In this document: in pieces, positions 2,444-51,697 of the stretch
Numbering within the stretch: the first letter of the stretch is position 1
How the letters are laid out: each line of letters starts with the position of its first letter
Assembly (NCBI GenBank): GCA_003140935.1
Contig: PLLJ01000045.1
Span: 2,767-66,766 of the forward strand
Source of the DNA: Candidatus Omnitrophota bacterium
GTDB taxonomy: Bacteria; Omnitrophota; Omnitrophia; Omnitrophales; Aquincolibacteriaceae
Direction: 5' to 3'
Length of the DNA stretch: 64,000 bases
The notes under the pieces: model-generated
Told to the model about the DNA's origin: nothing
Seen by the model: the letters and a program-made list of their open reading frames with translations, nothing else
Databases searched by the model: none
Translations under genes and position numbers: made by a program

Positions 2444-5400
2444 CTAAAATTTTCCGGTCATGCGCACAAACGGCCCATGACTTTTGAAACTATTCGTGTC
2501 ACGAAGGTCATCGCTGAAGTCAGTGAAATTATACCCCACCCCGAGCCGCACGTATTCATAAAATTCACGGTCAACTTCCACCAGGGCGCCTTGCTTCAAG
2601 GTATCCAAGGCATACGACTGCATCAGGATCCGGTACTCAAGCGCCAAGTCCCATTTGCGTGTCACGTGGAAATTGATGCGGTTCGCGGTCAGGAACGTGT
2701 TGACGTCCACCTTGTCGCCCACAGCGGAATTGACCACCGAATGTTTGAAGGCCAATTTCTCGGCCAAACCGAAATAGCGGTTCACGTCATAAGCCACATC
2801 AGTCGCAAGGATATGGGCCTCTTGGTCGAATTGGAAACCGTTGTATTGAGTGTCGTTGTATTGCTGGCTGGCGCCGACGTCCTTCAGAAAAGTGTACCGT
2901 GCCAATAAGTTCAGTTTATCAAGCTTGATGGGTCGGTAGGCAAACCCCGTACTGCCCTCCACAAAGTTCGCGGGAGTATTGGCCGGATCGTATTGACGGG
3001 TATCCCCGTAATTGAAGTAGGAAAGAAAACCCAGATCTTCGGTGATCTGGTAACTGAAAGAGTTGCGCGTGACGATCTGCGCCATTTTGGGGGCATCTTT
3101 ATCGCCGCGCAATTCCCAGTAGGTTCGCGCCCGGAACTTCTTCCCGCTCGCATAGGCGAGGTTGACGCCGGCGGTGTTGAAATCATTAGCGCGGGCAAGT
3201 GAATTCTGGGCCGCCTGATCGATCAGGCGCGTACTGGAATTCTCCAAGTGGCGGCGCTCGTACTTGGCTCCGTAATCCCAATGATCCCCTGCCTTTCCTT
3301 CATAACCCAGAATGTCCGCGAAGCCGTCGCTTCCCTGATAGGAGGAATATTCGCGTTCGGAATACATGCGCGATTTTTCGGTAAGCGCGAACGAATTTCC
3401 GATGGCCGTCGAAAGCGTCTTGTCCCCGATCCCGCGGTCTTCAGAACGGATGTTCGCATAACTCCGGGCGCCGTTCCCGTGCTGGCGCTCAAACCCGAAA
3501 TAGGTCGAATCCCCCAGAGGCCCGACCATTTCTTCCAGATAAGCAAAAAGATTATTCAAGATCTCATAACGCACGCCGCCGCCGAACTGCTGATCGCTCT
3601 TTCCGCCGATCGCGGTCTGGACCTTCACGTAAGGAAGCAGGCGATCGTTGATGTGATAGCCCAGTTTCCCCGTGACGCCGTTCTTAAAGGGGAACTGATT
3701 GGTGAGATCGGGTATCAGGTTCCCGACATCCTGCACCTCATCCAGATTGCGGCGTTGATATTCCAGTTCCGCGAGATATTTCGCGTCGTCATAAATGATC
3801 TGCGCGGTTTGGGTTTCGAGCGACTGGAACGGCTCCTGGGTATTCGTCACATCGAGCGGCATGAGCTGACTGAGGACCTCATTGCGATCGAAACGATAGC
3901 GAACGGACAAATTGTCCGTGAACTTGTACCGTGTGGCTAAGCCGTATTTTTCAAAACCTTCCTGATCCCGCATATAACCGTTCGAAAAACCCGGATTCAC
4001 GCCCTGGACATAACCGCTCGTTTCCAGTTTTTTTACAGGTTCTGAAGAGGCCTTGATGAGATAAGCGTCTTCCTGGGGCCGCGTATGCCTCCCGTTCAAA
4101 GGACCCAGACCCGCGTAGCTGATACCGCCGTCATAAGAGATCTCGGTCCCCGTCTGCTGGTTGATCGTTCTGGCATACTCCGCCGTGACCTTTGTGTTGC
4201 GTCCGAACTTCATCATGGCGTCCACGCCGGCCATGTCATAATCTCCACCGGGCCGGCTTTCCTGGACCCCGGTCGCGCCGATCCTTACGTGATCTCCCAT
4301 CCAGGTGTAGCCGCGTACGCCTTGGTTTGCGATCGAGGGGACCGCGTTGCTAGGGTCGAATTCATAATCGACGATCAAAACGACCGGACTCCCGTCCAGG
4401 ATGTCGGTCGAAGTCATCGTATCGGCCGCGGCCACGGAGGAAAGCGGCCGGGTAAGCATAATGCGGCCTTCGGGGTAATTGATCTCGTAATCCAAGCCCT
4501 CCTGCAGGTCATAACTGGAGACGGTCATATTCTGGATCTTGTCGCGGATCTCGACGCGGATCTTTTCGCTGCCTTCGATGATGTTACGGTTACGCGTGTA
4601 GAAAAGCGAACCGCCCGTGGCATAAAGCTCGTTATGGTCCGCCTGGTGCGAGGATTTTGCGCTAAAGACCTTGAACCCGCGTTTCGGATCGCCGTAGGCC
4701 GTGCTATCCACCGTATCAAAATTGATCTTCAGCCCAGAAAGCGTGCGGTTGTACGTGGCGAGCTCCGTATCCGTGAACTCGGTCTTGAAGCTTCCCCATT
4801 GGGCGTAGGAGCGGTCCATCTCGACCAGCACGTAAAGCTTTTGGGCCGTGTCCTGCGCCTGATAGTCGCGCGTCGAATTGTCCCCATAGATTGGATAATA
4901 GTCGTTCGGATTGAGGTTCGTGAAAAGCCCGTTGCGCTTATCGGCGGTGTCGTACTTGGCCTTCACAAGGAACTTGCCCTTGAGCTTGCCCTTCAAAAAG
5001 AAAGACGCACGCCCTTGTTCGCGGAACCCGTCGCGGTAAACCTCTGAGTCCGCGGCTTCCATCGCGCCGCTCGCCTCGTTCAGGCCCAACTGTTCTTCTC
5101 CCAAGGCCACCATGAAAAAGGTGCTGTCCTTCACCTTGATCTTCTTGTTGAAGCTTGTGGTCTCGCCCTCCGGCGTCGTGGCTGAAATAGCCACTTCATA
5201 TTCACCAGGCTCCACGAAGAATTCTTTCTGGAAGAGACCGCTTTCTCCGTCCACGGTCACGGGAGTATCGTTGATCATGATCTTATTTTTGGGTTGGGTC
5301 TTGCCCTGCACGCGGACCGTGGGCTTCGCCACAAGCGGAATGCTCCGCTGTCCGTCCTTCAAAAGATTGAAATCGCCGACCGGCGGGATCTCGGGATGGT

Positions 5401-9811: not shown

Positions 9812-10695
9812 TTAACGACCCCCAGTTTTTTGAGGACTTCCGCGAGCTTCTTCGCGTTCTCGGGTCTCATCGCGCAAAGCGGCATCCGGAATTCGGGCTT
9901 GATCTTTCCCATCATCCCGAGCGCCGTTTTCACCGGGATCGGATTCGTCTCCATAAAGACGGCTTTGGAGACCGGATAAAGCATCTTATGGATCGAACGC
10001 GCTTCTTCCATGTTCCCGTTCAATGCCGCGGTCACCAGATTCTTCACAAGTCTCGGTGCGATGTTCGCGACGACCGAGATCACGCCGCGCGCGCCGATTG
10101 CGATCAGAGGGAAATTCAGGGAATCCTCCCCTGAAAGGACCGGCAGGTCGCAAAGCTGCATGATCTGATCGGCCTGGTCCATGCTGCCGCTCGCTTCTTT
10201 GATCGCGACGATCGTATCGATCTTGGAAAGACGCGCCACGGTCTCGGGAGCGATGGAGACCCCCGTGCGTCCCGGCACATTGTAAAGCACGATAGGTATA
10301 TCGACGCGACGGGCGAGATATTGATAGTGACGGAAAAGGCCTTCCTGTGTCGGCTTGTTATAATACGGGGTCACGACTAGCACGCCGTCCGCATTGATCC
10401 TTTTGGCATGCTGGATCAGACCGAGCGCCTCGGTCGTATTGTTCGAGCCGCAACCGCAGATCACGGGGATCCGGTGATGGATATACTCGACCACGAACGA
10501 CATGGCCGCGCGATGTTCGATATGCGACATCGTGGCGGATTCGCCCGTCGTGCCGCACGGAACGATCACGTCCGTGCCTTCCTTGAGGTGAAAATCCAAG
10601 AGCCCCTTGAGCGCTTTTTCGTCCACCTTCCCGTTACGGAACGGTGTCACAAGCGCGACCATCGAACCTTCGAAAACAGATCTCTTTTTTTTCAT
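9808..10695 (-). CDS. dapA: 4-hydroxy-tetrahydrodipicolinate synthase
   Basis: PCGTTGESATMSHIEH and the YNVPGRTG motif. 295 aa. Confidence 0.9.
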   Translation of the reverse strand: MKKKRSVFEGSMVALVTPFRNGKVDEKALKGLLDFHLKEGTDVIVPCGTTGESATMSHIEHRAAMSFVVEYIHHRIPVICGCGSNNTTEALGLIQHAKRINADGVLVVTPYYNKPTQEGLFRHYQYLARRVDIPIVLYNVPGRTGVSIAPETVARLSKIDTIVAIKEASGSMDQADQIMQLCDLPVLSGEDSLNFPLIAIGARGVISVVANIAPRLVKNLVTAALNGNMEEARSIHKMLYPVSKAVFMETNPIPVKTALGMMGKIKPEFRMPLCAMRPENAKKLAEVLKKLGVVK

Positions 10696-11591
10696 AGAAA
10701 ATATTCCCCTTTGTAAACGAATTGGGCTTTGCCTTCTAAAAAGACTTGGGTGATCTCATTACCTTTTTGCCGCATCTCGATCCGGAGCTTTTCGCCGCTT
10801 TTTGTCAGAACCTGGACGGGCGATTCGACATAGCCCTTGAGAACGCTTACGACCGCCGAGGCCGTAGTCCCCGTGCCGCAGGCGAGCGTTTCGTTCTCCA
10901 CGCCGCGTTCGTAGGTCCGGACCGTGATCTCTTTCTTGCTTTTCACTTCCACAAAATTCACGTTCGTTCCGAACGGCTGGAAACGCGGGTGGTTCCGGAT
11001 GGCCTTACCGTTCTCAAAGACCCCTGTTTTCCCTAGATCTTCCACGAAGATCACCACGTGCGGCACGCCAGTATCGAGAAAGGCGTAAGGGAAACGGTGC
11101 TTCACCACCTCCAGGACCCCGTTCATCTCAAAAATACGCGGCTTCGCGAGCTGGACCCTGACGCTGTCCCGGGGTCCGACCGCGGCTTCGATCATCCCCG
11201 ACCCGGATTCAAAGGTCATGCGCGAAGAATATTTTAAAACCTCATGGGCATAGAGCGCGATGCAACGGAACCCGTTCCCGCACGCCGCGGCCTCCGACCC
11301 GTCCAGATTAAGGATCCGCATCTTAAAATTCGCCCTCTTGGAATTTTCAAACAGCAGGACCCCGTCCGCTCCCGCACCCTGATGGGGACGGCAAACCTCC
11401 CGGGTAAAGGCGAGCGCGTCTTTCACGACCCCCTGGCGGTTATCCACCACGACGAAATCGTTCCCCGAAGCGACCATTTTGTAGAACGGAATAGAGTTTT
11501 TCATATAAAGGCTTGCCAGTCTTTTGGTTACAAGCTGGTGTATTGTATCAAAAATCCTGGGAACGGGGAAAGGGAAACGCTTTTTTACCAT
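10692..11591 (-). CDS. dapF: diaminopimelate epimerase
   Basis: FYKMVASGNDFVVVDNR, plus the two catalytic Cys contexts ACGNG and ACGTG. The true start is probably the internal MKNSIPF (ATG about 11504), because the upstream 29 codons cover an intergenic repeat. Confidence 0.88.
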   Translation of the reverse strand: MVKKRFPFPVPRIFDTIHQLVTKRLASLYMKNSIPFYKMVASGNDFVVVDNRQGVVKDALAFTREVCRPHQGAGADGVLLFENSKRANFKMRILNLDGSEAAACGNGFRCIALYAHEVLKYSSRMTFESGSGMIEAAVGPRDSVRVQLAKPRIFEMNGVLEVVKHRFPYAFLDTGVPHVVIFVEDLGKTGVFENGKAIRNHPRFQPFGTNVNFVEVKSKKEITVRTYERGVENETLACGTGTTASAVVSVLKGYVESPVQVLTKSGEKLRIEMRQKGNEITQVFLEGKAQFVYKGEYFL

Positions 11592-11691
11592 GGGGACTCG
11601 GGACTTGTGCCTCGGGACTCGTTTAAAGAAGAATTTTCGAGTCCCTAGTCCCGTACTGAATGACGGGTAGAAATTAATGGTTATTCAGTAC
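11592..11691. repeat. intergenic repeat cluster: GGGACTC/GAGTC heptads plus D-like hairpin
   Basis: ggggactcgggacttgtgcctcgggactcg faces cgagtccctagtcccg. Then comes the hairpin gtactgaat-(21 nt)-attcagtac. The aatgagagccag + acgagtc motif at 11716-11747 recurs at 28203-28240. Confidence 0.7.
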
Positions 11692-11751
11692 TGCACTGGC
11701 TTCCAATAAAAATTTCAATGAGAGCCAGGCGAACTACGAGTCTCGCGAAAA

Positions 11752-12937: not shown

Positions 12938-14446
12938 TTATACTCTTTCATCCACGAGGAACGAGTTGAATTGCCAAAGGGCTTCTTCTCCGGGGGCTTC
13001 GGAACCGAATTTCATGTATTTCTTGTTAAGGTTCTGAAGCGGCGTCCAGTCCGAAGGAATTGAAATGAAAGGAACGATGTAGGGCGTCACGAATTTCAGA
13101 ATGAATTCGTGATCGATGTCGTCGGGGAGCAGGAATCCTTCCTTGGGATTTTGGATCATCCAAAGCGCCGCGGCGACGACCGAGACCGCGACCTGGAGCG
13201 TCGTGGCCTGCTGATGCGCCACAAGTTTCCGCGTGGTGTGGATATCGAGAAGACTGCCGCACCACCAGGACTTGAAATCATGCCCCATGAGAAGCACGCC
13301 GAGCTCGTCGCGTCCTTCCGTGATGTCGTCGGCAAGAGTGCGCTGTTTTTCCTGCATCTTGTACTGGCGCATCCTGAGCTCATGGAGCGAAAGGACCGCC
13401 GAATCCGAAGGACAATAGGCGTAATGAACGGTCGGGCGATAGACCGCCTTGCCGTTTTCCCAGACCGTCAACCGGTCCGAAAGACTGTACGCCTCTCCGT
13501 GACGGATCACCATGCCGTTGATCTCGCCGCACGGCACCCAGGACCGGACCAGCGTGTTCATGCCGAGCGTCCCGAGACAGATCTGGTTCTTCGGACCTTC
13601 CTTGTGCTCGTACCCGTCCTTGGGGAATTCCTTTTCGTGCGTCCCCCATCCCATCTCGGCCGGGGCCACGCCTTCCTCATAGAAACCTTCGATCGACCAC
13701 GTGTTCACGAATTCGTTCACCTGCTTCGGAACATCCGTGATTTGCGTGTCGCGTTCGCTGACGTGGATGACTTTGACGCCGGTGATCTCGGCAAGTTTCG
13801 GAAAATTCTTTTCTTCAAGATACTTTTTGAGGTCCCCGGCGCGCGGGTCCGCGGATTTTTCTTTGAGGATCTTTTTCGCGATATCGATCAGGGCCTTTTT
13901 CGTGAAATGCGAAACAAGCCCGGGGTTCGCGCCGTGGTCCACGATCGCCGTGGCGCCTTTTTCGCGCCCCCACTTCGCCTCCATCAGCTTGCGGAGTTTC
14001 ATGTGACGGGCATAAAGCGTGTACTTAGTCGGGTCCGTCCGCTTATCATCGAGGTACGGGTCCCACACTTCGACCGAGGTGTTCACATAAAGCACCTCGT
14101 TCGTGCGGCACCAGTCCAGGATCTCCCAGCAATCGATGTTCCACGCGAGATCGATGATCATGTCTCCCGGCCCCGCGTACTTGGCCAGAAGCTTTTTGTA
14201 ATTGTCCTGGGTGACCTTGTCGAAGACGTATTTCACGCCGCGCTTGAGGGCGTCCTTCACGCGGGGGCGGTGGTCCACGAAATCCATGATCGTGATCTTC
14301 GAGGCCGGCATATCGAAGTGGCGCAGGACCAGCGGCACGGCGCATTGCGCGACGCCGCCGCAGCCGATCATGAGAAGCCTGCCGCCGAACTTCACTTTTG
14401 TTTTTGGAATGACCGCTTGGGCCTTCGGGTATTTAAATCCGCTCAT
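12938..14446 (-). CDS. hss: homospermidine synthase
   Basis: Long stretches match my memory of bacterial HSS: MIGCGGV, GANPGLVSHF, SERDTQ, VNTWSIEGF, PAEMGWGTHE, VYRPTVHYAYCPSDSAVLSLHE, DELGVLLMGH, DWTPL, WQFNSFLV. I start it at ATG 14446 (MSGFKYPK, preceded by GGAGAGAGAAAG). The 45-codon extension in the track ORF is rejected. Confidence 0.85.
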   Translation of the reverse strand: MSGFKYPKAQAVIPKTKVKFGGRLLMIGCGGVAQCAVPLVLRHFDMPASKITIMDFVDHRPRVKDALKRGVKYVFDKVTQDNYKKLLAKYAGPGDMIIDLAWNIDCWEILDWCRTNEVLYVNTSVEVWDPYLDDKRTDPTKYTLYARHMKLRKLMEAKWGREKGATAIVDHGANPGLVSHFTKKALIDIAKKILKEKSADPRAGDLKKYLEEKNFPKLAEITGVKVIHVSERDTQITDVPKQVNEFVNTWSIEGFYEEGVAPAEMGWGTHEKEFPKDGYEHKEGPKNQICLGTLGMNTLVRSWVPCGEINGMVIRHGEAYSLSDRLTVWENGKAVYRPTVHYAYCPSDSAVLSLHELRMRQYKMQEKQRTLADDITEGRDELGVLLMGHDFKSWWCGSLLDIHTTRKLVAHQQATTLQVAVSVVAAALWMIQNPKEGFLLPDDIDHEFILKFVTPYIVPFISIPSDWTPLQNLNKKYMKFGSEAPGEEALWQFNSFLVDERV

Positions 14447-14587
14447 TTTCTCTTTCTCTCTCCGTCCGTTCAATGAAGAAGGGACGAATACTACATCAAA
14501 AAAAAATCCACAGCAAGAAATACCATGGGGAAAACGCGTCGGGGGAAGAGAACGGCGTCCCAATCCTCCGAGACATCTCAAGGGTTG

Positions 14588-14722
14588 ATTGGGACTGTCC
14601 TAATACTTATCAATTTCCGCACAACGGAAATTGGGGCTGTCCAAGTCAGCCATCCTGGAAATAAAACGAAAGACTTGGACTGCACTGAACTTCCATTAGG
14701 TTTTATGGGTTGTTCAGTGCGG
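14588..14722. repeat. composite intergenic hairpin element (modules C-A-D)
   Basis: Module C is caatttccg-cacaa-cggaaattg, flanked by ggactgtcc/ggggctgtcc. Module A is gtccaagtc-(A-rich 24 nt)-gacttggac. Module D is gcactgaac-(21 nt)-gttcagtgc. A near-identical copy lies at 39686-39814. Confidence 0.85.
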
Positions 14723-14735: not shown

Positions 14736-15434
14736 TCATTTTTCTTCGAACCAGTCCACCTTGCCGGTCTTAACATCGTAGATCGCGAGAACGATCTTGA
14801 GCGTGCCTTGGGCGACCCGGTCCCGGATCTCTTCGCTGTTGGCCCGGAGGTCCCTTTCCACCTGGAAGACATTCTGTTTGATCACCTCATGGGTCAGCGC
14901 GGCGTCCTTCAGGTCCGGATTTTCCAGTTCTACTTCCTTCACGACGGGTATGATCTGTTCCTGAATATCGTGGAGACTCCCCTCAAGCTTCTCCCCCGAG
15001 ACCGCGGCCCCGACCGCTCCGCATTGCGTGTGACCCAGGACCACCAGCAGAGGCACATGCAAATGACCGGCCGCGTACTCCAGGGAACCGACCACACTGC
15101 TGTCCACGGCGATGTTCCCCGCGACCCGCACTACAAAAATATCTCCGATCCCCCGGTCAAAAACCGTTTCCACCGGCACCCTCGAATCCGCGCATCCGAG
15201 CACGACCGCAAACGGTTTTTGGCCGTTCACGGCGGTCTCTTCCCGTCTCGCATTATTTGCGTCGGGATGCTCCATCTTCATGGCGACAAAACGGGCGTTC
15301 CCTTCTTTGAGCAGCGCGAGCGCTTCCTCCGCGGTCTGTTCCGTGCCTTCGCCCGCGAACACCGGACCGGTCTGTGCTGCGATCCCTATCATCCCTATGG
15401 CAAAAAAAACGGCCCTGAAATTTTTTATCTTCAT
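14736..15434 (-). CDS. beta-class carbonic anhydrase, secreted
   Basis: CADSRVP and HTQCGAV zinc-ligand motifs. Has an N-terminal signal peptide. Confidence 0.85.
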   Translation of the reverse strand: MKIKNFRAVFFAIGMIGIAAQTGPVFAGEGTEQTAEEALALLKEGNARFVAMKMEHPDANNARREETAVNGQKPFAVVLGCADSRVPVETVFDRGIGDIFVVRVAGNIAVDSSVVGSLEYAAGHLHVPLLVVLGHTQCGAVGAAVSGEKLEGSLHDIQEQIIPVVKEVELENPDLKDAALTHEVIKQNVFQVERDLRANSEEIRDRVAQGTLKIVLAIYDVKTGKVDWFEEK

Positions 15435-25083: not shown

Positions 25084-25147
25084 TCTATATCCTATCCGCC
25101 AAATTTCGCGGACGGATCCGTCCACGCCGTGTGGCGGATAGGGTATA
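25084..25147. repeat. module-B hairpin repeat
   Basis: ctatatcctatccgcca pairs with tggcggatagggtatag (17-bp stem, 1 mismatch). The stem encloses the palindrome ggacggatccgtcc. Confidence 0.8.
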
Positions 25148-25169
25148 GGGTTTGTCACTCATTCCGGGG

Positions 25170-25305: not shown

Positions 25306-25307
25306 AA

Positions 25308-25370
25308 CCCCGAGTCCCGAATCCCGAGTCCCTGTATTATTGTGTCTCGCGTCCCGAGTTGCGAGTCCCC
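25308..25370. repeat. GAGTC/GGGAC heptad motif cluster (family E)
   Basis: cccgagtcccgaatcccgagtccctgtattattgtgtctcgcgtcccgagttgcgagtccccc, immediately 3' of pcm. The core gagtccctgtattattgtgtc recurs at 29448. Confidence 0.7.
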
Positions 25371-28054: not shown

Positions 28055-28182
28055 GCACTGAACAACCCATAAGACCTATTGGAAGTTTAGTGCGCCATGA
28101 TTCTCTTTTTTTAAAAAATAAACGGGTAATCATGACAGTCCAAGTCGCCATTCAAGAAAAAAATGAAGACTTGGGCGGCACT
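28055..28182. repeat. composite intergenic hairpin element (modules D-inverted, F, A)
   Basis: gcactgaac-(21)-gtttagtgc. Then catgatt-(25, A/T-rich)-aatcatg. Then gtccaagtc-(A-rich 21)-gacttgggc. Confidence 0.8.
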
Positions 28183-28202
28183 CGCTTTCGATAAAATATT
28201 TT

Positions 28203-28240
28203 AATGAGAGCCAGTGCCGAGTTACGAGTCCCGAGTCCCC
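28203..28240. repeat. family E motif (aatgagagccag + GAGTC heptads)
   Basis: aatgagagccagtgccgagttacgagtcccgagtcccc, directly 3' of the radical SAM gene stop. Confidence 0.65.
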
Positions 28241-29413: not shown

Positions 29414-29480
29414 CCTACGAGTCCCTAGTCCCGTCTTTATTTATCCCGAGTCCCTGTATTATTGTGTCCCGTGTCCCAAG
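29414..29480. repeat. family E motif cluster
   Basis: cctacgagtccctagtcccgtctttatttatcccgagtccctgtattattgtgtcccgtgtcccaag. On the minus strand this gives six GGGAC units. Confidence 0.7.
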
Positions 29481-31011: not shown

Positions 31012-31052
31012 GCACTAATTTTCTTTTAAAAAAATTTATCGAAAATCAGTGC
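31012..31052. repeat. module-G hairpin
   Basis: gcactaatttt-(A/T loop)-aaaatcagtgc. The same module occurs at 52681-52721. Confidence 0.6.
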
Positions 31053-31148
31053 GTACCAAAGCATTGGGCTTTGATGCATTCAACCGGTCCCCGGGGTGCC
31101 AGCTTGTCCGCCTCTGGCGGAGTACTGTTCTATTCCGCTTCCGGTTGC

Positions 31149-31215
31149 CATATATCATATCCGCCAAATTTCACGGACGAATCCGTCCACGCTGTGTGGC
31201 GGATATGATATACGG
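31149..31215. repeat. module-B hairpin repeat
   Basis: tatatcatatccgcca pairs perfectly with tggcggatatgatata (16 bp). The stem encloses ggacgaatccgtcc. Confidence 0.8.
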
Positions 31216-31297
31216 TCTGTCACCGCCCCGCGTCTTTTGTCCTCGTGCCCCGAGCTACGAGTCCCGAGTCCCGTCTTCATTTGTCCCGATTCCCCGT

Positions 31298-31819
31298 TTA
31301 TATCTTTTTCGATTCCTGTTCCAGGCGCTTCATTTCTTCCAGGCTCGAGTTCTCTTCCCCGGCAATCTGTTGTCGGTTGTCCCCATCTTTATTCGAGTCC
31401 CGAGGAGCGAGTCCCGAGTCCCGCGGTGTTTCGTTCGAGTCCCGAGCTACGAGTCCCGAGTCCCGTGGTTTTTCGTCCGTCGTCTTGGCCTCAGGGGAAG
31501 AAAGTCCTTTTTTTGAGTCCTGTTCCAGGCGCTTCATTTCTTCCAGACTCGGGTTCTTTTCCCCGGTAGTCTGTGGTCGGTTGTCCCCATCTTTATTCGA
31601 GTCTCGAGCTACGAGTCCCGAGTCCCTGTCTTTATTCGAGTCCCGAGGAGCGAGTCCCGAGTCCCGCGGCGTTTCGTCAGCCGCAGCTTTATTCGCTCGC
31701 CGGGCCGCGATCGCCGTCCTCGCCGCCCGGATGCCAAAGATCGCGTGCGCCGGAGGCGCTCCGAGAAGAAACGTCCCCGTCACCAGTCCCGCCATCACGA
31801 TTTTAAAAGTTTTCGACAT
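31298..31819 (-). CDS. membrane-anchored/secreted repeat protein built on GGGACTC heptads
   Basis: ATG 31819 is preceded by GGGGAGGTTGGAG. The anchor is MSKTFKIVMAGLVTGTFLLGAPPAHA. Two repeats of about 68 aa follow (PRDSGL[AV][AP]RDSNKDGDNR...SLEEMKRLEQ[DE]SKK). Coding status is uncertain because the DNA is the intergenic repeat motif. Confidence 0.45.
   Translation of the reverse strand: MSKTFKIVMAGLVTGTFLLGAPPAHAIFGIRAARTAIAARRANKAAADETPRDSGLAPRDSNKDRDSGLVARDSNKDGDNRPQTTGEKNPSLEEMKRLEQDSKKGLSSPEAKTTDEKPRDSGLVARDSNETPRDSGLAPRDSNKDGDNRQQIAGEENSSLEEMKRLEQESKKI
31314..31677. repeat. tandem direct repeat, period about 204 bp, 2 copies
   Basis: The unit tcctgttccaggcgcttcatttcttccag...gtccccatctttattcgagtc...gagtcccgagtcccgcgg begins at 31314 and again at 31518. 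The second copy has an extra insert of about 38 bp. Confidence 0.85.
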
Positions 31820-32286: not shown

Positions 32287-32358
32287 CCTTTTGCGGATTA
32301 AAACAACAAACGGAGAAATCAAACAATGGAGTCATCCCTTCCCTCTTTTGGATGGCTG

Positions 32359-32970
32359 TCATCTTTTTTTCAGAGTAGCTTTGTCTTTATAGCTTGTACA
32401 TCGCACATAAAAATCAAATTGAATTAAAAAAAGAAGTATTGCGAACATAATTGTTAGAAATAAATTTTTCGTTAAACTTAATAATCCTATCGCTAATAAA
32501 GTCCCATTTAAAAAAGCCATTAAAAATACGAGGATCGGGAAATGATGCAAAAAACCTTCAAAATGTTTTGGCTCCTCATCGGTTATCGGCAACTTCAAGT
32601 ATTTTGTCAGATCGTCTTCCAGACTATTATCTGTGAAATACTTGCGAGTAAGGTTTGCGCTTTTTGCATAAAAAATCATCCGCATCCTAAGATTCATTAT
32701 GATCGCAAGGAAAATAACTCCTATAACAACTAAAAAAAGAACTATATAGACAAATGGCACTGGCAGATTATACAAGTCCCAAGTGATGGAGTTTATTTCT
32801 CTTGTTAATGCTAAGAATAAAGAAAGCGGAATCGCAATAACACCAAAATAATATTTAAATAATTGATAAAGAATTGTATATAAATGCTCGTAAAGCTCAT
32901 GCAAAAGCTTGTGCTCCTGCATCATAAATTCAAATTCTTGCTGAGCAGATAGTTGAGGATGTTTTTCCAT
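32359..32970 (-). CDS. 4-TM membrane protein, last gene of the AT-rich island
   Basis: 203 aa. Cytoplasmic N-terminus, then hydrophobic helices FGVIAIPLSLFLAL, VPFVYIVLFLVVIGVIFLAIIM, FPILVFLMAFLNGTLLAIGLLSL and LFLTIMFAILLFLIQF. AT-rich codon usage matches the three upstream genes. Confidence 0.6.
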   Translation of the reverse strand: MEKHPQLSAQQEFEFMMQEHKLLHELYEHLYTILYQLFKYYFGVIAIPLSLFLALTREINSITWDLYNLPVPFVYIVLFLVVIGVIFLAIIMNLRMRMIFYAKSANLTRKYFTDNSLEDDLTKYLKLPITDEEPKHFEGFLHHFPILVFLMAFLNGTLLAIGLLSLTKNLFLTIMFAILLFLIQFDFYVRCTSYKDKATLKKR

Positions 32971-32990
32971 TGCTATCTTTAATGGGGTCG

Positions 32991-34070
32991 TTATTTCCTT
33001 CCCAATCTTTCTAATTCCCGGTTGTATGATTCAAAGCCATGTCTTATGACTATGTTTTGCTCTCGTACTTTTCTTCGAAAAAGTTTAACTTGCCAATCCA
33101 TCCAATTCTGATGAATAAAATAATCCGCAGAAGTCTGCGCGACTCTTGGGTTATAGTTATCGAACGTTTGATTTAAAGGCCGATAACGGCAATCAGCGGT
33201 TTGAACTCCCCATTTTTTACATTCTTTAATTTTTTGCAACATTTCATAAAAATCATGTTCGAAGTTAGATATCATGAACACGTACATCTCTTTTGCTCTG
33301 TATCCGGCTTCGATCAGCATCTCGATTTGTTTTTTTATCATTTGGCGCTGGGAATATCCATGATCCCAAGCGATCCTCGGGTTAAGAAAATGTGCCTGCT
33401 TCAACAATTTCGCCAATTCTGGCGTCAAAAGCCTCCCGTCAATTCCGCACTGACTTTCAGAATAGACCGCTCGCCCATTGCACTTCGCATTCTTCAATTC
33501 ATCCAAAATGTCTTTTATATATGGATTAGCTAAAAGATTATTATCGTAAAAAATTACCCTATTGCTACAAATCTCATCTTTGATACTTTTTTTGGGAATA
33601 AATTCGGGCTCGATTTTCCAAGTTCCGCAGAATTTACATTTTCGCACACATCCTCTTGAAGAATGAACGATCTGATAATCGACATCAACTAAACTGTAAT
33701 CTGGCGCAGATGCTTCCGCCTTTGGATCCACGCCAACAAAAACTTTATCGCATTCAGATTGTTTACAGTGGTCTGGCATGAGTGATGCATAAATGCCACC
33801 GACAGTTATATGGGCCCTGGGATAATTCTTTTTGTAGAATTTCACACTATCCCACACGTATTTGGACCAATAGGTAAATAGAGAGGTAATCTTAATTTCA
33901 TCCGGACAAAACTCTCCAACCAGCTTGTCCCCTCGCACAAGTCGGACTTTATCACCATTTGCTTTGTGGTAACTGGCTAGCTTGAGTAAGCCAACAGGCA
34001 AAAAATCTCGGTGATTTTTGCTTTTTGCTGGAATCGGAAAACCTGGTTCCACTAATAATATTTTAGACAT
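32991..34070 (-). CDS. radical SAM enzyme with N-terminal B12-binding-like domain (class-B-like), AT-rich island
   Basis: SSRGCVRKCKFCGTW contains CxxxCxxC. The N-terminus ILLVEPGFP...FLPVGLLKLASYHKANGDKVRLVRGD follows the Rossmann-like pattern of B12-binding radical SAM proteins. 359 aa. Its ATG overlaps the HD gene stop (ATGTCTAA). Confidence 0.8.
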   Translation of the reverse strand: MSKILLVEPGFPIPAKSKNHRDFLPVGLLKLASYHKANGDKVRLVRGDKLVGEFCPDEIKITSLFTYWSKYVWDSVKFYKKNYPRAHITVGGIYASLMPDHCKQSECDKVFVGVDPKAEASAPDYSLVDVDYQIVHSSRGCVRKCKFCGTWKIEPEFIPKKSIKDEICSNRVIFYDNNLLANPYIKDILDELKNAKCNGRAVYSESQCGIDGRLLTPELAKLLKQAHFLNPRIAWDHGYSQRQMIKKQIEMLIEAGYRAKEMYVFMISNFEHDFYEMLQKIKECKKWGVQTADCRYRPLNQTFDNYNPRVAQTSADYFIHQNWMDWQVKLFRRKVREQNIVIRHGFESYNRELERLGRK

Positions 34071-35583
34071 TTTTATTTAACAAGGTTTCTGGTAATTTCA
34101 ATTTAATGCCATTAAATTTTATATTATTCATAACATCTTTGTACTCGGGGAGTTTTCGAGCTAATTGCTCAGGATTAGCCCATCGGACTTTAACTTCAGC
34201 GTAATTATCTTCAAAACGGAAACCATCAAAAATGGCAAATTCCGCCGTTTCTTCGAAAGAACCGTTTCTTTTCCAATCATGTATGCTATCTAAAAAAATT
34301 AATAATACGGCGAAAGGGAAACGAGAAATATTAATCGGGAAGACTTCATGCTTTCTGAGTTCTTTCCAGATTCTGCTGTCATGTAGCGCAATAGAAGTAA
34401 CCGCTGGTATAACATGGGTAACAATTAACGGCCTATTGGGACGGCTGGTCACGACTTTTGATTCGCGTAAAACTCTCACAAGAAATTGAAAACATCCTGT
34501 TACTCCATGCGATCTATGTTTTATCAAATGTTCTCGTAGTATGTCCTTGATACTAGAATCCTCATCTTCTGACATTTCGGGCGTCCAATTATTAAGGATA
34601 CGTTCGGAACAACAATGTCGAATGAAGGATTGTAATTGTATCGCAGCCTGCAAATAATCACTTTTATCAGCGATCTTTTCCAAACCAATTAGTTCTATAT
34701 CCTCATTGTACCCGTACATTTCGCCAATTAAGTTGCCTGCTTTTTGCGAAGGGTAACCAATATCATGGAATATAGAAGTAATTAACCAGATGTATTCGAT
34801 GGAAAAATCTTTTTCCCGAGGAAAAACATTTTTATAATATTTTTGAAATTCCGCATAGTATTTATCGATTATTACGCATCCCATTAACATAACTTGAAAA
34901 GAATGCAAATAATGCTCACGCGTGCCCTTCAATAAGGGCTCATAATATTTCAGCCTCAAGTAAGGTTCCGAAGAATAATGAAATCTTTTATTATCAAAGA
35001 TTTTCTTTATCGTCAAATCAACTAATTCGTATTCCTCCTCTGAGATATTTTTTGTTTTTCTTAATCGTGAATATTTCGATACAAAATCCTTTAGGATTTG
35101 GCGGTATGAAATATTGTCCAAATCGCCAACGTACGATAAAAGCTTATTTGGAACATGTCCATGCTCAGAAGCCGCCTTCTTTTTTATTAGTTGTTTATAT
35201 TTTTTTCCACTAATTGCTTTGGCTTTAATATCAAGAAGTACGGAAAGCGAAGAATTGCTTAACTGAATTAGCCCAAATCCATTATTGAAACATTCAGAAA
35301 ATATCTGATCATATTCATATTCCGGCGGAATATAATAATAAAATTCAAAATTTTTAATTTGTTTTTTTGCTTTGATGATTTCTTTAGCGCCATTCGCTGG
35401 AAAAGCATTGCTTGTATTTATATCAATTGAAATTAATTTGGACTTATAGCGGTAAAGAAGATCTGGGCTCCACGCAATACCTCTTAAAATCCGATCTCCA
35501 GCCTTTTGGGAAAGTCTTCGCCAGTTGTATTTTTTCACTAAAATTTTATTGAGTTTATCTAGAAAAATTTCTTTTTTTGACAT
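34063..35583 (-). CDS. HD-domain phosphohydrolase with uncharacterised N-terminal domain of about 230 aa, AT-rich island
   Basis: Metal-ligand series H (EHYLHSF), HD (SIFHDIGYP), H (HRSHGVTG) and D (ALHDS / LDSIHDW). 506 aa. Confidence 0.7.
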   Translation of the reverse strand: MSKKEIFLDKLNKILVKKYNWRRLSQKAGDRILRGIAWSPDLLYRYKSKLISIDINTSNAFPANGAKEIIKAKKQIKNFEFYYYIPPEYEYDQIFSECFNNGFGLIQLSNSSLSVLLDIKAKAISGKKYKQLIKKKAASEHGHVPNKLLSYVGDLDNISYRQILKDFVSKYSRLRKTKNISEEEYELVDLTIKKIFDNKRFHYSSEPYLRLKYYEPLLKGTREHYLHSFQVMLMGCVIIDKYYAEFQKYYKNVFPREKDFSIEYIWLITSIFHDIGYPSQKAGNLIGEMYGYNEDIELIGLEKIADKSDYLQAAIQLQSFIRHCCSERILNNWTPEMSEDEDSSIKDILREHLIKHRSHGVTGCFQFLVRVLRESKVVTSRPNRPLIVTHVIPAVTSIALHDSRIWKELRKHEVFPINISRFPFAVLLIFLDSIHDWKRNGSFEETAEFAIFDGFRFEDNYAEVKVRWANPEQLARKLPEYKDVMNNIKFNGIKLKLPETLLNKNV

Positions 35584-35593
35584 ATATTTGGAA

Positions 35594-36592
35594 TTATTTG
35601 TTATTTATCATTTGGTCAATGGTGTCTCGAAGTTTTTTTAAAGAAACCAAGATTCCTTCCTTTCTTTTTTTATCAGTTTCCTTCTTTAAATCAAACTCAG
35701 ATAGCTGTGAATTTAATTTATTAATATTTTTAATTAATGAACGGCTTGTTGTTTTGCTGGTCAAGGTGGGTATTTGTACTTTTTTAGTTAAGTCGTTTTT
35801 CAAGTCTTCGATTGTATACTCGATGTTTTCAATAAATCTTTTTGCTGAAGCAGCAAAAATTTCGATTTTGTCCAACTTCTTGCAAGTCATGATGGCATCG
35901 GGTATCCAAAAGAATGCGCGAGTTGTCCCAAGAAGACCTTTTTCTGCTTTCGCTATAAGCTTCCCTCTAATTTCTTCCCTCGAGTGATCCTTAAAAGTTT
36001 GGGGTATGTTTTTTTCTAACTGTTCAACAAAATTTTGTTCTATCTGCACAAGGTAACTGTCATCCAGCTTATTCTCCATAACTTTTTCTTGCGTTTCTTT
36101 ATTAAACCTCAAAAGCCGCAATCTATCTTCGACCTTTTTTCCGTCCATTTTGGTTATCTTTGCTATTTCGCCAATTAGGTCTTGATCGGTTATCGATTTG
36201 TTTTTTCTTTTTATCAAATCAACATAGAATTTTAGCGCTTGGGCTTGCGCCATCGGCTCCCATTGTTCTCTCAGCATGTGAATTTGAAACATTCGTTTTA
36301 AGCCTTCCCCTTGGGCTTTGGCTTTTTTAATGGCCAACACATGGATGGGCACGCCTTCTCGTTTAACTTTTTGAGCAGCTTTAAGCCGTCTTTCGCCATC
36401 GAGCAAAATATATTTTTTGCCTTTTTTGCTATCGTTTTTAAAAACGATCAAAGGCACCATGACTCCAAATTGCCGAATGGATTCCTCTAGTGCTATGAAA
36501 TCCTTATCCTCATAATCCTGGCCTCTGGGATTATCTGGATTGAAAGCTATATCATTAGGAGAAACATACCTGATCTGCTCGTTTTTATTCAT
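35594..36592 (-). CDS. ParB/Srx N-terminal-domain protein, first gene of the AT-rich island
   Basis: VSPNDIAFNPDNPR ... VPLIVF ... YILLDGERRLKAAQ (the ParB box II GERR arginine motif), followed by a helical, K/E-rich C-terminal half. ATG 36592 is preceded by GGAGG at a 6-nt spacing. Confidence 0.75.
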   Translation of the reverse strand: MNKNEQIRYVSPNDIAFNPDNPRGQDYEDKDFIALEESIRQFGVMVPLIVFKNDSKKGKKYILLDGERRLKAAQKVKREGVPIHVLAIKKAKAQGEGLKRMFQIHMLREQWEPMAQAQALKFYVDLIKRKNKSITDQDLIGEIAKITKMDGKKVEDRLRLLRFNKETQEKVMENKLDDSYLVQIEQNFVEQLEKNIPQTFKDHSREEIRGKLIAKAEKGLLGTTRAFFWIPDAIMTCKKLDKIEIFAASAKRFIENIEYTIEDLKNDLTKKVQIPTLTSKTTSRSLIKNINKLNSQLSEFDLKKETDKKRKEGILVSLKKLRDTIDQMINNK

Positions 36593-36761
36593 TCTATACC
36601 TCCATTTATTCCATAAATCATTTAAGATTTTTTATCTTTGTAGACGGAATCGATCCTACTTTCTTTCGTAAGTCAACGGAACACCGTCTGGGGAAAGACG
36701 TTAACTCCCCAATCTTATAGACGCACTCTTCGTTACAGGCAAGGGGAAAAAAGAAACCGCC

Positions 36762-37251: not shown

Positions 37252-37429
37252 ACTAGTACTGTTCTCCATTTGATTTTCCGCCACAATTCTTCGGACGGAT
37301 CCGTCCTTTGGCGGATAGGGGTTAACAGCACTTGTTCTCAAAAAAAACTTAAAGGTTAACAAGTGCTGTCCAAGTCGCCCTTAATAAAATAAAAACGAAG
37401 ACTTGGGCCGTACTGTGTACCGCATACCC
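37252..37429. repeat. composite intergenic element (module B, 11-bp-stem hairpin, module A)
   Basis: ccgccacaattcttcggacggatccgtcctttggcgg. Then cagcacttgtt-(21)-aacaagtgctg. Then gtccaagtc-(23)-gacttgggc. Both termini match those of 52667-52845 in inverted orientation. Confidence 0.85.
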
Positions 37430-37452
37430 TTAATTTCAAATGTGATGCGGTG

Positions 37453-37926
37453 CTAGAGACCTTGCTGCACGGGCGAGCTTGAGCCTCCGCTGCCCAGCAT
37501 AAAAGTATACTCCGTCGGTGACTCTGCGGAGACATGGACCGGCGTCTCTTTCGAAGCATAGCCCGTAGCACTCAGCGTAAGCAGGACCTGGAAACCGGAC
37601 TGCGGGAAAGGGCTTTTTCCGTCGAACGGGACCTGGCTCATTTCGCCGTCCTTGGTCATTCCGCTGAGCGTGAACCCCATGAAATCTTTCACGGGAAAGA
37701 ACGCGATCCCTTCCCGGTTAACCGCCGCCGTTCTCGTCACGTTAGAGGCCGCTAGCGTATCTCTCATTTCGATCTGTCCCGCGGAAGGCACGACGTTCCC
37801 CGACTCTTCACGCACGATGACCTTGAGCGAGGGCGCTGCCTCCTCAGCCTTCAAAGGCAGGGTCACGCCCCAAAAAACCAGGATCGCCAGTATCCATCCC
37901 GTTCTTAAGGTCCTCAGGTTTCTCAT
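37453..37926 (-). CDS. secreted protein, unknown function
   Basis: I start it at MRNLRTLRTGWILAILVFWGVTLPLKA (ATG 37926). Beta-rich composition. Confidence 0.5.
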   Translation of the reverse strand: MRNLRTLRTGWILAILVFWGVTLPLKAEEAAPSLKVIVREESGNVVPSAGQIEMRDTLAASNVTRTAAVNREGIAFFPVKDFMGFTLSGMTKDGEMSQVPFDGKSPFPQSGFQVLLTLSATGYASKETPVHVSAESPTEYTFMLGSGGSSSPVQQGL

Positions 37927-38207: not shown

Positions 38208-39560
38208 TCACCTTTGCATACGAACAGCGTGCCCTTTTTCCAGGAGTTCCTGGTTCACGTAAGTCCCGCCGGCCCAAATGTCGACCAGGTACCTGTCGTA
38301 TTTGTCGGACTTGACGGTCTTGATGAGGATTTGCGCGCTGATTTTTCCATCCGCCATTTTCAACATCTTCTCCATGGCTTCTTTCGCTTCTTTTCCTTCC
38401 TTGCTCACGAGCTCGGGGGCGTCGAGACCGCGCAGGCGCAGGGTCTGCACGCTGCGCACGCCGAAGCCCAGATCGACCACCGCTTCGATCGTGTCGCCGT
38501 CGAGAATGCGGAACACCCAGGCGCGGTAAGTAAAAAGGTCGGCGGAGGTCCGTTTCGAGAGTTTGATCAGATCCGAGGGCGCGGAACCCGCTCCCGGGAA
38601 CGCGGGCATCACTTCGATGATCGCCCCTTCCTTGAAACGGAGGTCCCGGGACGTCCGGTAATAATTGGAGAACCCGAGGTCGATCACCGCCTTGCCGGTC
38701 TCGGGGCCCGCGGCGGCTTTGACGATCTTATAAGTCCCGGGCTTCCCCGGCTTGGCCGTGAGCGGGGTTTCTTTCACCGGCGCCGGCGCCTCATTTTTCG
38801 CGGCCTTGCGCTTTTTCACTTCTTCACGTACCTGGTCGCGGGTCCAGTTTTCTTTTTCAGCCATGGCCGCGACCTCGTCTTGCTCCTTGATATCATTCAG
38901 CGAAAGAAGCTCCTCATAATGGCTCCAGCTCAATTTTCCCGCGGGCGGGGAAATCGGGTAATCGCGGGCGAACTGAAGCATGGCGTACAGCTGGGTCTCG
39001 CTGATGGGCAAGTCTCCGGACAATCTTAAGATCACCTGCTTGCCGTAATCCGCGCGCTCCTTGTGCTGGAGCACGTGCTCGTCGATCAGTTTGCCGATCT
39101 CCCACGCCTCGCGGACTTTTTCCTGTTGGGCGGCCTGCTCCACACGGGCCTCGCTGGCCGCGTGGGCCTTGCGAATGGCGGCGACGAGCTGCTCGTAAGT
39201 TCCAACCTGGGTCGCGAGCACTGTAGACGATGGTCCCAAATCGTCACCGGGCCGTGCCTGTTCACGGCGCTCTTCAGCCGTCCCTGTGGGACTGGGAACA
39301 GGCGAGGTCTGGACCTGCGGCGCGGGCACTGTAGACGATTGTCCCAGATCGTCACTGTGCCGTGCCTGTTCACTGGGAACAGGTGCGGGGACCGGCGGGT
39401 TCATCGAAGGGACCTGCCCTGAGCTTGCCGAAGGGGCCTGCGAAGACGAGGACTTCAAGTCCCCGCGAGCGTGCTGAGGAACCGGGTCCTCAGCCTGCAA
39501 GGACGGGGATATCCAGAGGAGCGTGAGGAAAATACCGAGGGTGATCGTCGTCGTCTTCAT
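38208..39560 (-). CDS. secreted fusion protein: DUF1016-N-like helical domain + staphylococcal-nuclease (SNase)-like domain
   Basis: Signal peptide MKTTTITLGIFLTLLWISPSLQA. P/S-rich duplicated linker. Central EAWEIGKLIDEHVLQHKERADYGKQVILRLSGDL...LSWSHY resembles the YhcG/DUF1016 N-terminal region. The C-terminus ILDGDTIEAV...LRGLDAPE...DKYDRYLVD is thermonuclease-like. Confidence 0.65.
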   Translation of the reverse strand: MKTTTITLGIFLTLLWISPSLQAEDPVPQHARGDLKSSSSQAPSASSGQVPSMNPPVPAPVPSEQARHSDDLGQSSTVPAPQVQTSPVPSPTGTAEERREQARPGDDLGPSSTVLATQVGTYEQLVAAIRKAHAASEARVEQAAQQEKVREAWEIGKLIDEHVLQHKERADYGKQVILRLSGDLPISETQLYAMLQFARDYPISPPAGKLSWSHYEELLSLNDIKEQDEVAAMAEKENWTRDQVREEVKKRKAAKNEAPAPVKETPLTAKPGKPGTYKIVKAAAGPETGKAVIDLGFSNYYRTSRDLRFKEGAIIEVMPAFPGAGSAPSDLIKLSKRTSADLFTYRAWVFRILDGDTIEAVVDLGFGVRSVQTLRLRGLDAPELVSKEGKEAKEAMEKMLKMADGKISAQILIKTVKSDKYDRYLVDIWAGGTYVNQELLEKGHAVRMQR

Positions 39561-39685
39561 TCCAAAGGTCCTTTCTTCTATGTAAGGCGTACGGTGTACG
39601 GAGTACGGCGTCCCGCCTGTCGTTCCTGTTCAAAAAAGGCGGGGCAGTGCGTCCCAACCTTCCCATCCATTTTAAAGGCCGGTTG

Positions 39686-39814
39686 AGACTGTCCTAATAC
39701 TTATCAATTTCCGCGCAACGGAAATTGGGGCTGCCCAAGTCAGCCATTCTGGAAATGAAACAAAAGACTTGGACTGCACTAAACTTCATTTAAGCTTTAT
39801 GGGTTGTTCAGTGC
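39686..39814. repeat. composite intergenic hairpin element (modules C-A-D), second copy
   Basis: Aligns over about 130 bp with 14588-14722 with only scattered substitutions. Confidence 0.85.
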
Positions 39815-39820
39815 GTCCGT

Positions 39821-40159
39821 TTAAGGAGTTTCCTGCGTCTCTTCCGGGTTCGTTTCTTCTTTTACCGGGGTCCCGAGGGGTTGGGCGGCCTCCAGATCGT
39901 CGATCCGGGATTCCAATTCCGCGTCCTGCCGGACCATGTACTTCATTTTGGAATCGTTCGTGTCGAGCCTGTTTTCCAATTGGCTTATTTTTGCCGCGAG
40001 GGCTTCCATTTTCGAGCCGCTCGCCTTGGCCTTGTTTTCCAATGCGTTCACCCTGGCCTCCAAAATGTCCGTACGGAAAGTATCCTCGACCGCGAGGACC
40101 CGGGTACCCGGAAGAAGCCCAAAGATCAGACAGAACGCGATTAGCAGTTTCTTCTTCAT
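39821..40159 (-). CDS. secreted coiled-coil protein (Lpp-like heptads)
   Basis: Signal peptide MKKKLLIAFCLIFGLLPGTRVLA. Heptad-rich ARVNALENKAKASGSKMEALAAKISQLENRL. Paralog of 40335-40739. Confidence 0.55.
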   Translation of the reverse strand: MKKKLLIAFCLIFGLLPGTRVLAVEDTFRTDILEARVNALENKAKASGSKMEALAAKISQLENRLDTNDSKMKYMVRQDAELESRIDDLEAAQPLGTPVKEETNPEETQETP

Positions 40160-51572: not shown

Positions 51573-51601
51573 ATTATAGAAATGGCTCTATCCTTTGTCA
51601 A
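51573..51601 (-). promoter_or_regulatory. consensus sigma70-type promoter of the arg-lysA block
   Basis: The minus strand reads TTGACA-aaggatagagccatttc(17 nt)-TATAAT. It lies about 45 nt upstream of the argC ATG, and AAGGAG lies between them. Confidence 0.6.
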
Positions 51602-51614: not shown

Positions 51615-51697
51615 GCCATGACCCTCTTTGATCAAAAGAACGGGAGGCCATGACAGCCCAAGTCACCCTCATGAAAAAGAAATAAAGGCTTGGGCGC
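51615..51697. repeat. intergenic hairpin modules F and A
   Basis: ccatgaccctc...gggaggccatg aligns with 28096-28134. gcccaagtc-(23, A-rich)-ggcttgggc follows. Confidence 0.7.

Follow-up and report, generated by a model that had tools for sequence, protein, structure and literature searches.

Paired hairpin units in Candidatus Omnitrophota: a probable family of non-autonomous insertions at gene boundaries

What are the short hairpins that recur, in changing combinations, between the genes of a Candidatus Omnitrophota bacterium, and how did they come to be there? The stretch that raises this question (the window: 64,000 nt of contig PLLJ01000045.1, assembly GCA_003140935.1, positions 2,767 to 66,766) has 55% GC and a housekeeping content, with 49 of the 51 genes that we called lying on the minus strand. 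A first-pass annotation had described seven hairpin modules in its intergenic DNA, centred on a composite at 14588-14722, and had offered three functions for them: mRNA-stabilising or terminator elements, protein-binding sites, or non-autonomous mobile elements. It is the last of these that we favour, given empty orthologous sites, nesting, and copy-number differences between strains. We consider it highly probable that the hairpins belong to a non-autonomous, insertional family akin to repetitive extragenic palindromes and their mosaics (REP/BIME), miniature transposable elements with inverted repeats (MITEs), BOX elements and Rickettsia palindromic elements (RPE), and that they are not tagged REPs. 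That they are copies of such a family in Candidatus Omnitrophota with integration of unit pairs by a recombinase as the preferred mechanism is, as a whole, the reading that we regard as probable.

The seven modules fit better into a single superfamily of hairpin units of ~40 nt; the hairpins were indeed present at the places listed, and it was their separateness that did not survive. Units are 37-45 nt long, have no coding capacity, and abut their neighbours with a gap of 0-2 nt. Among 90 oriented units, the stem base reads G-Y-A-C...G-T-R-C (G in 41, C or T in 76, A in 52 and C in 50 at the first four positions), and the only general end feature is this 4-nt unit base, in the form G-Y-M-C / G-K-R-C. 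The remaining stem sequence is variable but always complementary, so that at least 22 different stem octamers share one loop end and one plan; the loop, of 17-25 nt, in one orientation often begins with CTC and ends with GGGT(T). The A core (CCAAGTC-N18-28-RCTTGG) was found at 6 window loci against 0.03 expected, the B core (GGACGRATCCGTCC) at 4 against 0.03, and the C inner hairpin and the D pattern (GYACTRAAY-N21-RTTYAGTRC) at 4 each against 0. A modular mosaic in intergenic DNA, with four to six copies of each of these against 0-0.03 by chance, is thus borne out. When repeats were mapped by BLAST, the window being compared with itself and with other Omnitrophota loci, the repeated segments all fell outside well-supported genes. 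The map recovered most of the loci first listed, but did not flag 31012-31052 and covered 11592-11691 only in part; conversely, the list had missed the unit L (11693-11731 and 28177-28219) and a pair at ~55357-55431. The window has one copy each of modules G and H, which do recur in other species. Unit D reads ATGGGTTGTTCAGTGCGG, or MGCSVR in translation, and the spurious open reading frame (ORF) extensions that had been suspected are therefore real.

The composite that drew attention to the family does not start at 14588 but at 14555-14557, with a fourth unit, X (GTCCCAATC-21-GATTGGGAC, 14557-14595), that is followed by C (GTCCTAAT, inner hairpin CAATTTCCG/CGGAAATTG, then GGGGC; 14597-14637), A (GTCCAAGTC, A-rich loop, GACTTGGAC; 14639-14680) and D (GCACTGAAC-21-GTTCAGTGC; 14682-14720), all in plus orientation. 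On each strand its fold consists of four separate hairpins (z -6.3 as DNA, -7.5 as RNA). The second X-C-A-D composite (39651-39814, plus orientation; a degenerate X at 39651-39689, C at 39691-39731, A at 39733-39774, D at 39776-39814) had been called almost identical to it; the identity is 86% over 174 nt (match to 39649-39822). Both lie close to the stop of a minus-strand gene, as had been observed: the focal composite ~15 nt from that of a carbonic anhydrase gene (14736-15434), and the second composite 6 nt from that of gene 39821-40159.

Conserved pairing is clearest for unit A, of which we aligned 46 copies from many genomes. In this alignment 96% of cells are paired, and three pairs show compensatory double changes (GC>AU in 8 copies, UA>CG in 7 and CG>UA in 7); the loop (..CCATTCATGAAAAGAAATAAAG) is conserved too. 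Two stem positions are U.G in 28 of the 46 copies, which makes the strand with the A-rich loop the better folder (33 of 48 copies scored for fold and orientation). Units are also related to one another in pairs. K' matches the reverse complement of J at 26 of 40 positions, a level reached by 8 of 2000 shuffles; these two are thus homologous, so that a K'-J pair holds one unit twice, in inverted order. C+A pairs consist of two related hairpins in direct tandem order. A 39-nt palindrome in its own right, B was found inside the J loop at 37277 and 52780, while J is uninterrupted in three other loci (L015, L020, L031).

Insertion can be followed in loci with conserved gene order around asd (L033-L055), obtained by scanning metagenomes with the asd protein (72-94% identical in protein, 72-89% in DNA; labels L001-L120 denote the strains, relatives and other species whose loci were compared). 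Between rnc and asmA the window has a spacer of 209 nt, against 6-33 nt in five of eight relatives (L033, L035, L037, L039, L042); the other three (L034, L048, L049) have 77-106 nt of unrelated sequence, and the closest relative, L055, keeps the two outer half-units around an internal deletion. The composite at 52642-52841 (plus orientation) reads TAG-K'(52644-52680)-G(52681-52721)-A(52723-52762)-J(52764-52838)-TAG, with B nested in J at 52780-52818; the leading TAG serves as the stop codon of rnc. Pairs upstream of rnc and in the glgA-leuB spacer are likewise missing in several relatives. An all-against-all search gave ~85 insertion events, 51 of them of 70-89 nt, the length of two units, with a second group at 150-169 nt.

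Pairs also enter other units. In L038 and L050, J is interrupted after ..ACTG by an A+H pair of 83-84 nt; an A+C pair of 83-84 nt occupies the same point of J in L046 and L047, and a unit pair lies inside unit I in L041. Nesting of an inner pair in a K'/J outer pair explains the window composites K'-G-A-J and J'-H-A-K. Copy number changes even between strains that are 99.9% identical, which carry one or three tandem copies of C(+I) at 59.9 kb; in L001-L004 C is expanded there, with an I unit, to three tandem copies of period 83 nt. Finally, in asd of L039 (~10752-10844) and L042 (~10766-10848) an in-frame 84-nt pair adds 28 residues (TVPIPINFSKAKIGAVPVNHLRNKVKTG), and the frame stays open with both flanks conserved. 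A small ORF after rpsI likewise contains an 84-nt pair in frame (28 codons), and at the asd position in question L037 has an insert of 13 residues.

The insertions are flanked by short direct repeats, which we read by eye, the automated calls of junctions and composite boundaries being too noisy. TAG (or CTA) was found at no fewer than six independent sites, CAG/CTG at six or more, and GCG(GT) at two sites with the same C+A* pair. These repeats are the units' own boundary motifs, and vary with unit type. A K-type unit directly follows the stop codon in 17 of 92 cases for TAG, 4 of 132 for TAA and 0 of 145 for TGA. A repeat of 7-8 nt lies at the 3′ end of tRNA-Val(cac), where one arm of an A hairpin is made by the end of the tRNA.

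This last site has companions. The last 10 nt of tRNA-Val(cac), GTACYGCCCA, are the 5′ arm of an inverted A hairpin, and the second copy of the 7-8 nt lies past the neighbouring C unit; a hairpin resembling A, its stem compensated (CCAAATC/GATTTGG), accompanies tRNA-Val(tac); and partial tRNA-Leu and tRNA-Val copies lie just beyond unit arrays (tRNA-associated sites: L018 1046-1157, L028 5961-6073 and 3660-3869, L022 5939-6049). These observations hint that the A unit derives from, or targets, tRNA 3′ ends; a possible source is tRNA-Val, with its 3′ end and trailer hairpin.

We propose that the family would spread mainly as unit pairs of ~75-84 nt, landing at gene boundaries, at the boundaries or in the loops of resident units and occasionally in frame in coding sequence, and that nesting of pairs would build the mosaics of 120-200 nt. 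A recombinase encoded elsewhere in the genome would recognise folded units, and a pair would integrate where a short target core equals the unit boundary (TAG/CTA, CAG/CTG, GCG, or 7-8 nt at the tRNA-Val 3′ end). The TAG stop and the GGAG ribosome-binding motif that come with K/J-type ends may be why operon junctions tolerate copies. This mechanism, in which the recombinase acts on pairs in trans and the short target core equals the unit boundary, is a possibility that we put forward tentatively. A more specific version, which we think unlikely, is that a structure-specific recombinase (integron-integrase-, Xer- or HUH-like, or of a new type) acts on folded single strands with a core of 3-8 nt; the family would then be a cassette-less counterpart of attC, found in Omnitrophota only and co-opted by the host both as operon punctuation (TAG stop plus GGAG) and as translated inserts.

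Several observations weigh against this proposal. The 743 kb of Omnitrophota DNA that we sampled yielded neither a mobilising enzyme nor a complete parent element that shares the units' ends. That no transposase Pfam domain occurs on the window's contigs or adjoining copies elsewhere counts, with the units' lack of coding capacity, in favour of a non-autonomous family; the earlier remark that the window holds no transposase is supported for 4.7-64 kb by precomputed Pfam calls on the same contigs and by our own scans. Segments of 0.45-3.5 kb bounded by K/J-type ends contain only housekeeping genes between two elements, and all-against-all protein clustering of the sampled DNA gave no multicopy (transposase-like) protein. 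Searching the same 743 kb by tblastn with IS200, IS608 and RAYT (REP-associated tyrosine transposase) queries returned only noise, a weak test because the queries were unverified and because RAYT is usually single-copy per genome. Classical terminal inverted repeats are confined to the K'/J-type pairs, where they are imperfect and ~40 nt long (the 26 of 40 positions above). In 5 of ~10 events, the empty site has A where both repeats have G (TAA versus TAG..TAG, ACTAT versus ACTGT..ACTGT); we would account for this puzzling difference only by a restriction of invasion to sites identical to the element core, as we take it to be, or by a target preference. The direction of insertion and the empty sites are judged from relatives, and some empty sites could be deletions, as the internal deletion in L055 illustrates. 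Lastly, conservation at the asd-argJ junction is higher in the K'-J pair (mean identity 71%) than at asd 4-fold sites (51%), in 21 of 21 comparisons, and this would fit host function or gene conversion better than pure junk.

The asd-argJ pair deserves a closer look, as it bears on a rival reading, that the units are host-selected RNA or DNA structures, serving in operon punctuation, RNase III/E processing or mRNA stabilisation or as protein-binding sites. It is present in ten or more lineages, where it supplies the TAG stop, and in 9 of 10 of them the GGAG of J stands 10-12 nt ahead of the argJ start; where the pair is missing, stop and start overlap (TAAATG). Intercistronic positions, K' at TAG stops, compensatory stem changes, conserved loops and a strong fold on both strands would all suit such a role. 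Against it, close relatives do without the elements at the same junctions, where their stop and start codons simply overlap; some copies are found within coding sequence or within other units; and Rfam 15 gave no match at gathering score over the window (in E-value mode over two loci, two chance-level matches only). The A-rich loop is on the plus strand at all six window loci, as had been reported, but this uniformity dissolves across the 48 copies, of which 20 run with and 20 against co-directional flanking genes. Terminator-like sites in the window number 14 against 16.1 expected, and only one of them overlaps a unit (in the pair at 55.4 kb). The even orientation and the lack of terminator features argue that the units are not a directional RNA signal, and the suggested role as intrinsic terminators finds no support, with loops of 17-25 nt, no U-tract and random orientation to transcription. 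A primary RNA function, and host selection as the general explanation, seem to us quite improbable, though individual copies might have such a function. The host-selected explanation is best seen as secondary co-option of some copies: the asd-argJ pair being kept by host-level selection or by repeated conversion or replacement, some copies are probably under host-level constraint. Co-transcription of units with neighbouring genes is likely.

Two further candidates were set aside. The orientation of A relative to local GC skew (24:12) is confounded by gene strand and contradicted by syntenic relatives, and a strong promoter near units belongs to asd and not to a unit. That promoter (51573-51601, minus strand) is a perfect sigma-70 consensus, TTGACA-17-TATAAT, conserved in all relatives; directly upstream of it begins variable, repeat-invaded DNA, in which two unrelated 'alleles' are mixed among lineages.

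Among mobile elements, two established kinds compete with our proposal of recombinase-integrated unit pairs. Classical MITEs, deletion derivatives of a DDE insertion sequence that are moved in trans with a 3-bp target duplication and a YAG preference, would account for small, non-coding, multicopy and insertion-polymorphic elements, and for mutual insertion of the sort seen in pneumococcal BOX/RUP/SPRITE (PMC10969869). They would also account for the 3-nt direct repeats at most curated insertions, which match on both sides case by case (TAG, CTA, CAG, CTG, GCG), and for one clean CTA/TA case, AAAC-TA-(unit pair)-TA-AACAG against an empty AAAC-TA-AACAG. Yet the repeats are the same as the motifs at the units' own boundaries and track unit type, and they reach 5-8 nt (GCGGT twice, ACTGCCCA at tRNA-Val), unlike a fixed-length duplication of an arbitrary target; in addition there are no consistent terminal inverted repeats of >4 nt except in K'/J pairs, and no parent insertion sequence among the loci compared. 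We therefore regard MITEs as a doubtful, though not negligible, explanation. A TA-only duplication of the IS630/Tc1 type, which we also considered, fits CTAG and ATAG but fails at nested insertions (CTG) and at B in J, where there is no second TA.

The other competitor is the REP/REPIN system, in which units would be REPs and pairs REPINs, moved as single-stranded hairpins by a single-copy RAYT (Y1 HUH) encoded elsewhere in the genome. Much here resembles REP/BIME of enterobacteria and REPIN-RAYT of Pseudomonas: short (~40-nt) extragenic palindromes in high copy, alone, in pairs or clustered in mosaics, mainly between co-directional or convergent genes; pairs that appear to be the mobile unit, K'-J being an inverted one; structure kept while stem sequence varies; U.G wobbles and one strand that folds better, as expected of a single-strand substrate; and a family that is old and vertically inherited across species. 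Set against this are the direct, not inverted, order of C+A pairs and the direct repeats at junctions, which IS200/IS605-type transposition is not known to make; the RAYT search was, as said, a weak negative. The loop here is long (17-25 nt) and conserved, whereas a REP is a near-perfect short palindrome, and more than 20 stem variants stand on a fixed G-Y-A-C base. REPINs, the mobile form, are two inverted units that fold into a larger hairpin (PMC3337134). Both REP superfamilies are defined by an unpaired GTAG or CGTC tag at one palindrome end (PMC3733652), and the host phylum Omnitrophota is not named in the abstract of that REP survey. The membership in REP/BIME that had been suggested for the modules fails on this tag, which is present in 1-4 of 90 units; within 12 nt of unit ends GTAG/CTAC occurs twice and CGTC/GACG 5 times, as against 31 occurrences of GTAC and 12 of CTAG. 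We thus consider a REP/REPIN origin unlikely. Template switching during replication is, in our estimate, very unlikely as the source of the copies, and chance similarity or assembly artefact may be practically dismissed. It is true that, since the units recur as repeats, short-read assemblies break at these sites (two Logan contigs, L116 and L117, both end at window position 11681, inside D''), but the window sequence is identical in independent ENA, JGI and Logan assemblies and so is not an artefact of assembly, each module is expected 0-0.03 times by chance, and units recur in dozens of metagenome-assembled genomes (MAGs).

Other small repeats offer partial parallels to the non-autonomous insertional family that we favour. 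Pneumococcal BOX/RUP/SPRITE are modular too, with varying copy number of inner modules, bunching and mutual insertion (PMC10969869); their sequences are unrelated, BOX has three distinct box types where the modules here are all one ~40-nt hairpin kind, and the Omnitrophota units span many species of a phylum. Correia elements of Neisseria (CREE/NEMIS) are likewise ~100-200 nt and near genes, and they share a central TA in junction repeats (CTAG, ATAG) with our units, of which two copies adjoin the RNase III gene; we found no sequence similarity between them, and Correia elements form one family, marked by terminal inverted repeats of 26 bp. RPE, too, insert in frame into housekeeping ORFs without closing them, as the units do in asd of L039 and L042 and in the ORF after rpsI; in-frame copies are here a minority, most being intergenic, and the unit is 40 nt long against ~150 nt and unrelated in sequence. 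A likeness to integron attC sites concerns possible working and not membership: imperfect hairpins in which structure and short end motifs are kept while the stem varies, one strand that folds better, and a short core common to both junctions after insertion. Unlike attC sites, the units have no gene cassettes or array beside an integrase, and copies are scattered among syntenic housekeeping genes; RYYYAAC/GTTRRRY boxes did not turn up, in work that included no search aimed at them.

How far does the family extend? When 185,579 species genomes were scanned for a specific A pattern, 26 loci were returned, 24 of them in Candidatus Omnitrophota MAGs or in unclassified uncultured-bacterium MAGs with the same units; one locus, in a Planctomycetaceae MAG, looks like chance. 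At loci in other genomes A is flanked by the same neighbouring units, and three-unit composites (K'-G-A-J, J'-H-A-K) are 80-89% identical to the window copies in several species representatives. The A pattern had no matches in IMG/VR, the composites none in plasmid and phage collections, and a tRNA scan of the window found none. The repeat family thus appears to be specific to a clade of Candidatus Omnitrophota. A literature search on Omnitrophota together with REP, MITE or palindromic repeats found no description of these elements, and the hairpin-unit family is previously undescribed.

The remaining copies in the window follow the same plan. A D variant with two compensated pairs, D'' (GTACTGAAT-21-ATTCAGTAC, 11653-11691), precedes unit L (GCACTGGCTTCC...GAGAGCCAG, 11693-11731), both in plus orientation. 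At 28 kb a D that is inverted relative to the 14682 copy (28055-28093, minus) is followed by F (CATGATT..loop CTC...CGGGT..AATCATG, 28096-28136), A (28138-28176) and L (28177-28219), all plus. A 64-nt palindrome (25085-25148) holds the B core (TCCGCC..GGACGGATCCGTCC..GGCGGA) within an outer stem, CTATATCCTA/TAGGGTATAG; a 68-nt palindrome with a B core (31148-31215) is 89% identical to 25086-25158. The G-like hairpin at 31012-31052 (GCACTAATTTTC...GAAAATCAGTGC) is single-copy in the window. In plus orientation, a TAG and then J' (GTACTGTT..AACAGCAC, 37253-37331, with B nested in its loop at 37277-37315) are followed by H (37325-37369; 12-bp stem ACAGCACTTGTT, loop 21), A (37368-37408) and K (TACCGCAT..ATGCGGTG, with TAG at its end; 37410-37455); this composite, J'(B)-H-A-K (37253-37455), is 80-85% identical to copies in L007, L010 and L024. 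Units F (51616-51655) and A (51656-51695), plus orientation, lie just upstream of the asd promoter; this pair has a degenerate form in L034, L035 and L039, is absent in L033, L037, L042 and L048, and appears to be an old insertion. The pair I (51800-51840) plus inverted C (51841-51883; pair in minus orientation) has ATAG on both sides, lies 13 nt upstream of the rnc start and is absent in L034, L035, L039 and L040. Upstream of asmA, a CCAG-bounded pair (55357-55431, minus) joins a K-like unit (CACCGTG..CACGGT) to GTACTGCG..CGCAGTGC and is absent in L033 and L037. Finally, J' (59871-59907) plus inverted C (59908-59950; pair in minus orientation), again with ATAG on both sides, is absent in L034, L037 and L039.

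Other repeats share this DNA with the units. A second class consists of heptads, to which 11593-11652, first counted among the modules, belongs: it is a GGGACTC-heptad hairpin that abuts the dapF start codon and merely adjoins D''. Window heptads are GGGACTC (minus strand) at five loci and GTACGG at one (11593-11652, 25306-25369, 28213-28239, 29415-29457, 31229-31677 and ~39575-39605), and one strain, L120, is without 243 nt of the array at 31.4-31.6 kb. In seven relatives a heptad insert of 59-84 nt follows the TAG stop at argB-argD (L033 ~13101-13182, L038 ~13325-13406, L042 ~13263-13338, L045 ~3782-3859, L047 ~3582-3658, L049 ~13181-13236, L053 ~13252-13322), forming a hairpin with arms of 3-5 imperfect heptads (NNNNNAG / CTNNNNN) whose sequence differs per lineage. 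A further repeat of ~105 nt (TGCGTTGCTCCAGTTATTCCCTCCTGTAGGGCAC-ATTTAAAT-GTGCCCTACGGAAG...GGAACAATGCA) is inserted in K' loops and elsewhere (L037 ~4648-4750, ~9830-9940 and ~11090-11200; L023 ~3500-3650), and appears to be a distinct small element for which hairpin units serve as landing sites.

Flanked on either side by repeat-rich DNA (at 31.2-32.3 kb and 37.25 kb) is a low-GC island (32300-36600; 0.34-0.38 against 0.55) with genes for a ParB_N/GmrSD_N-like protein, a 506-aa protein without family, a radical SAM protein and a 203-aa protein of no assigned kind. Its proteins had no match in PADLOC; the island may have been acquired horizontally, with a role in defence or DNA modification. 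A gene at 38208-39560 (minus strand), which adjoins the second X-C-A-D composite, encodes a protein with DUF1016_N and staphylococcal-nuclease domains that matches PADLOC candidate system PDC-S02 (best E = 6e-23).

What sets the family apart is a single hairpin plan with many compensated stems, growth by nesting of pairs, ends that coincide with stop codons and bring a ribosome-binding motif, in-frame copies that are translated, and restriction to an uncultured phylum. For annotation, its units create false ORF extensions and in-frame inserts, both of which gene callers can be expected to mishandle. Omnitrophota are known only from metagenomes, and a phylum-specific, easily recognised repeat is a marker for binning and strain typing. 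The units also bear on how small mobile DNA persists and diversifies, through one hairpin architecture in dozens of compensated stem variants, growth by the nesting of pairs, and tolerance at operon junctions. If the mobilising enzyme recognises folded hairpins together with a short matching core, this would be a new mode of target selection.

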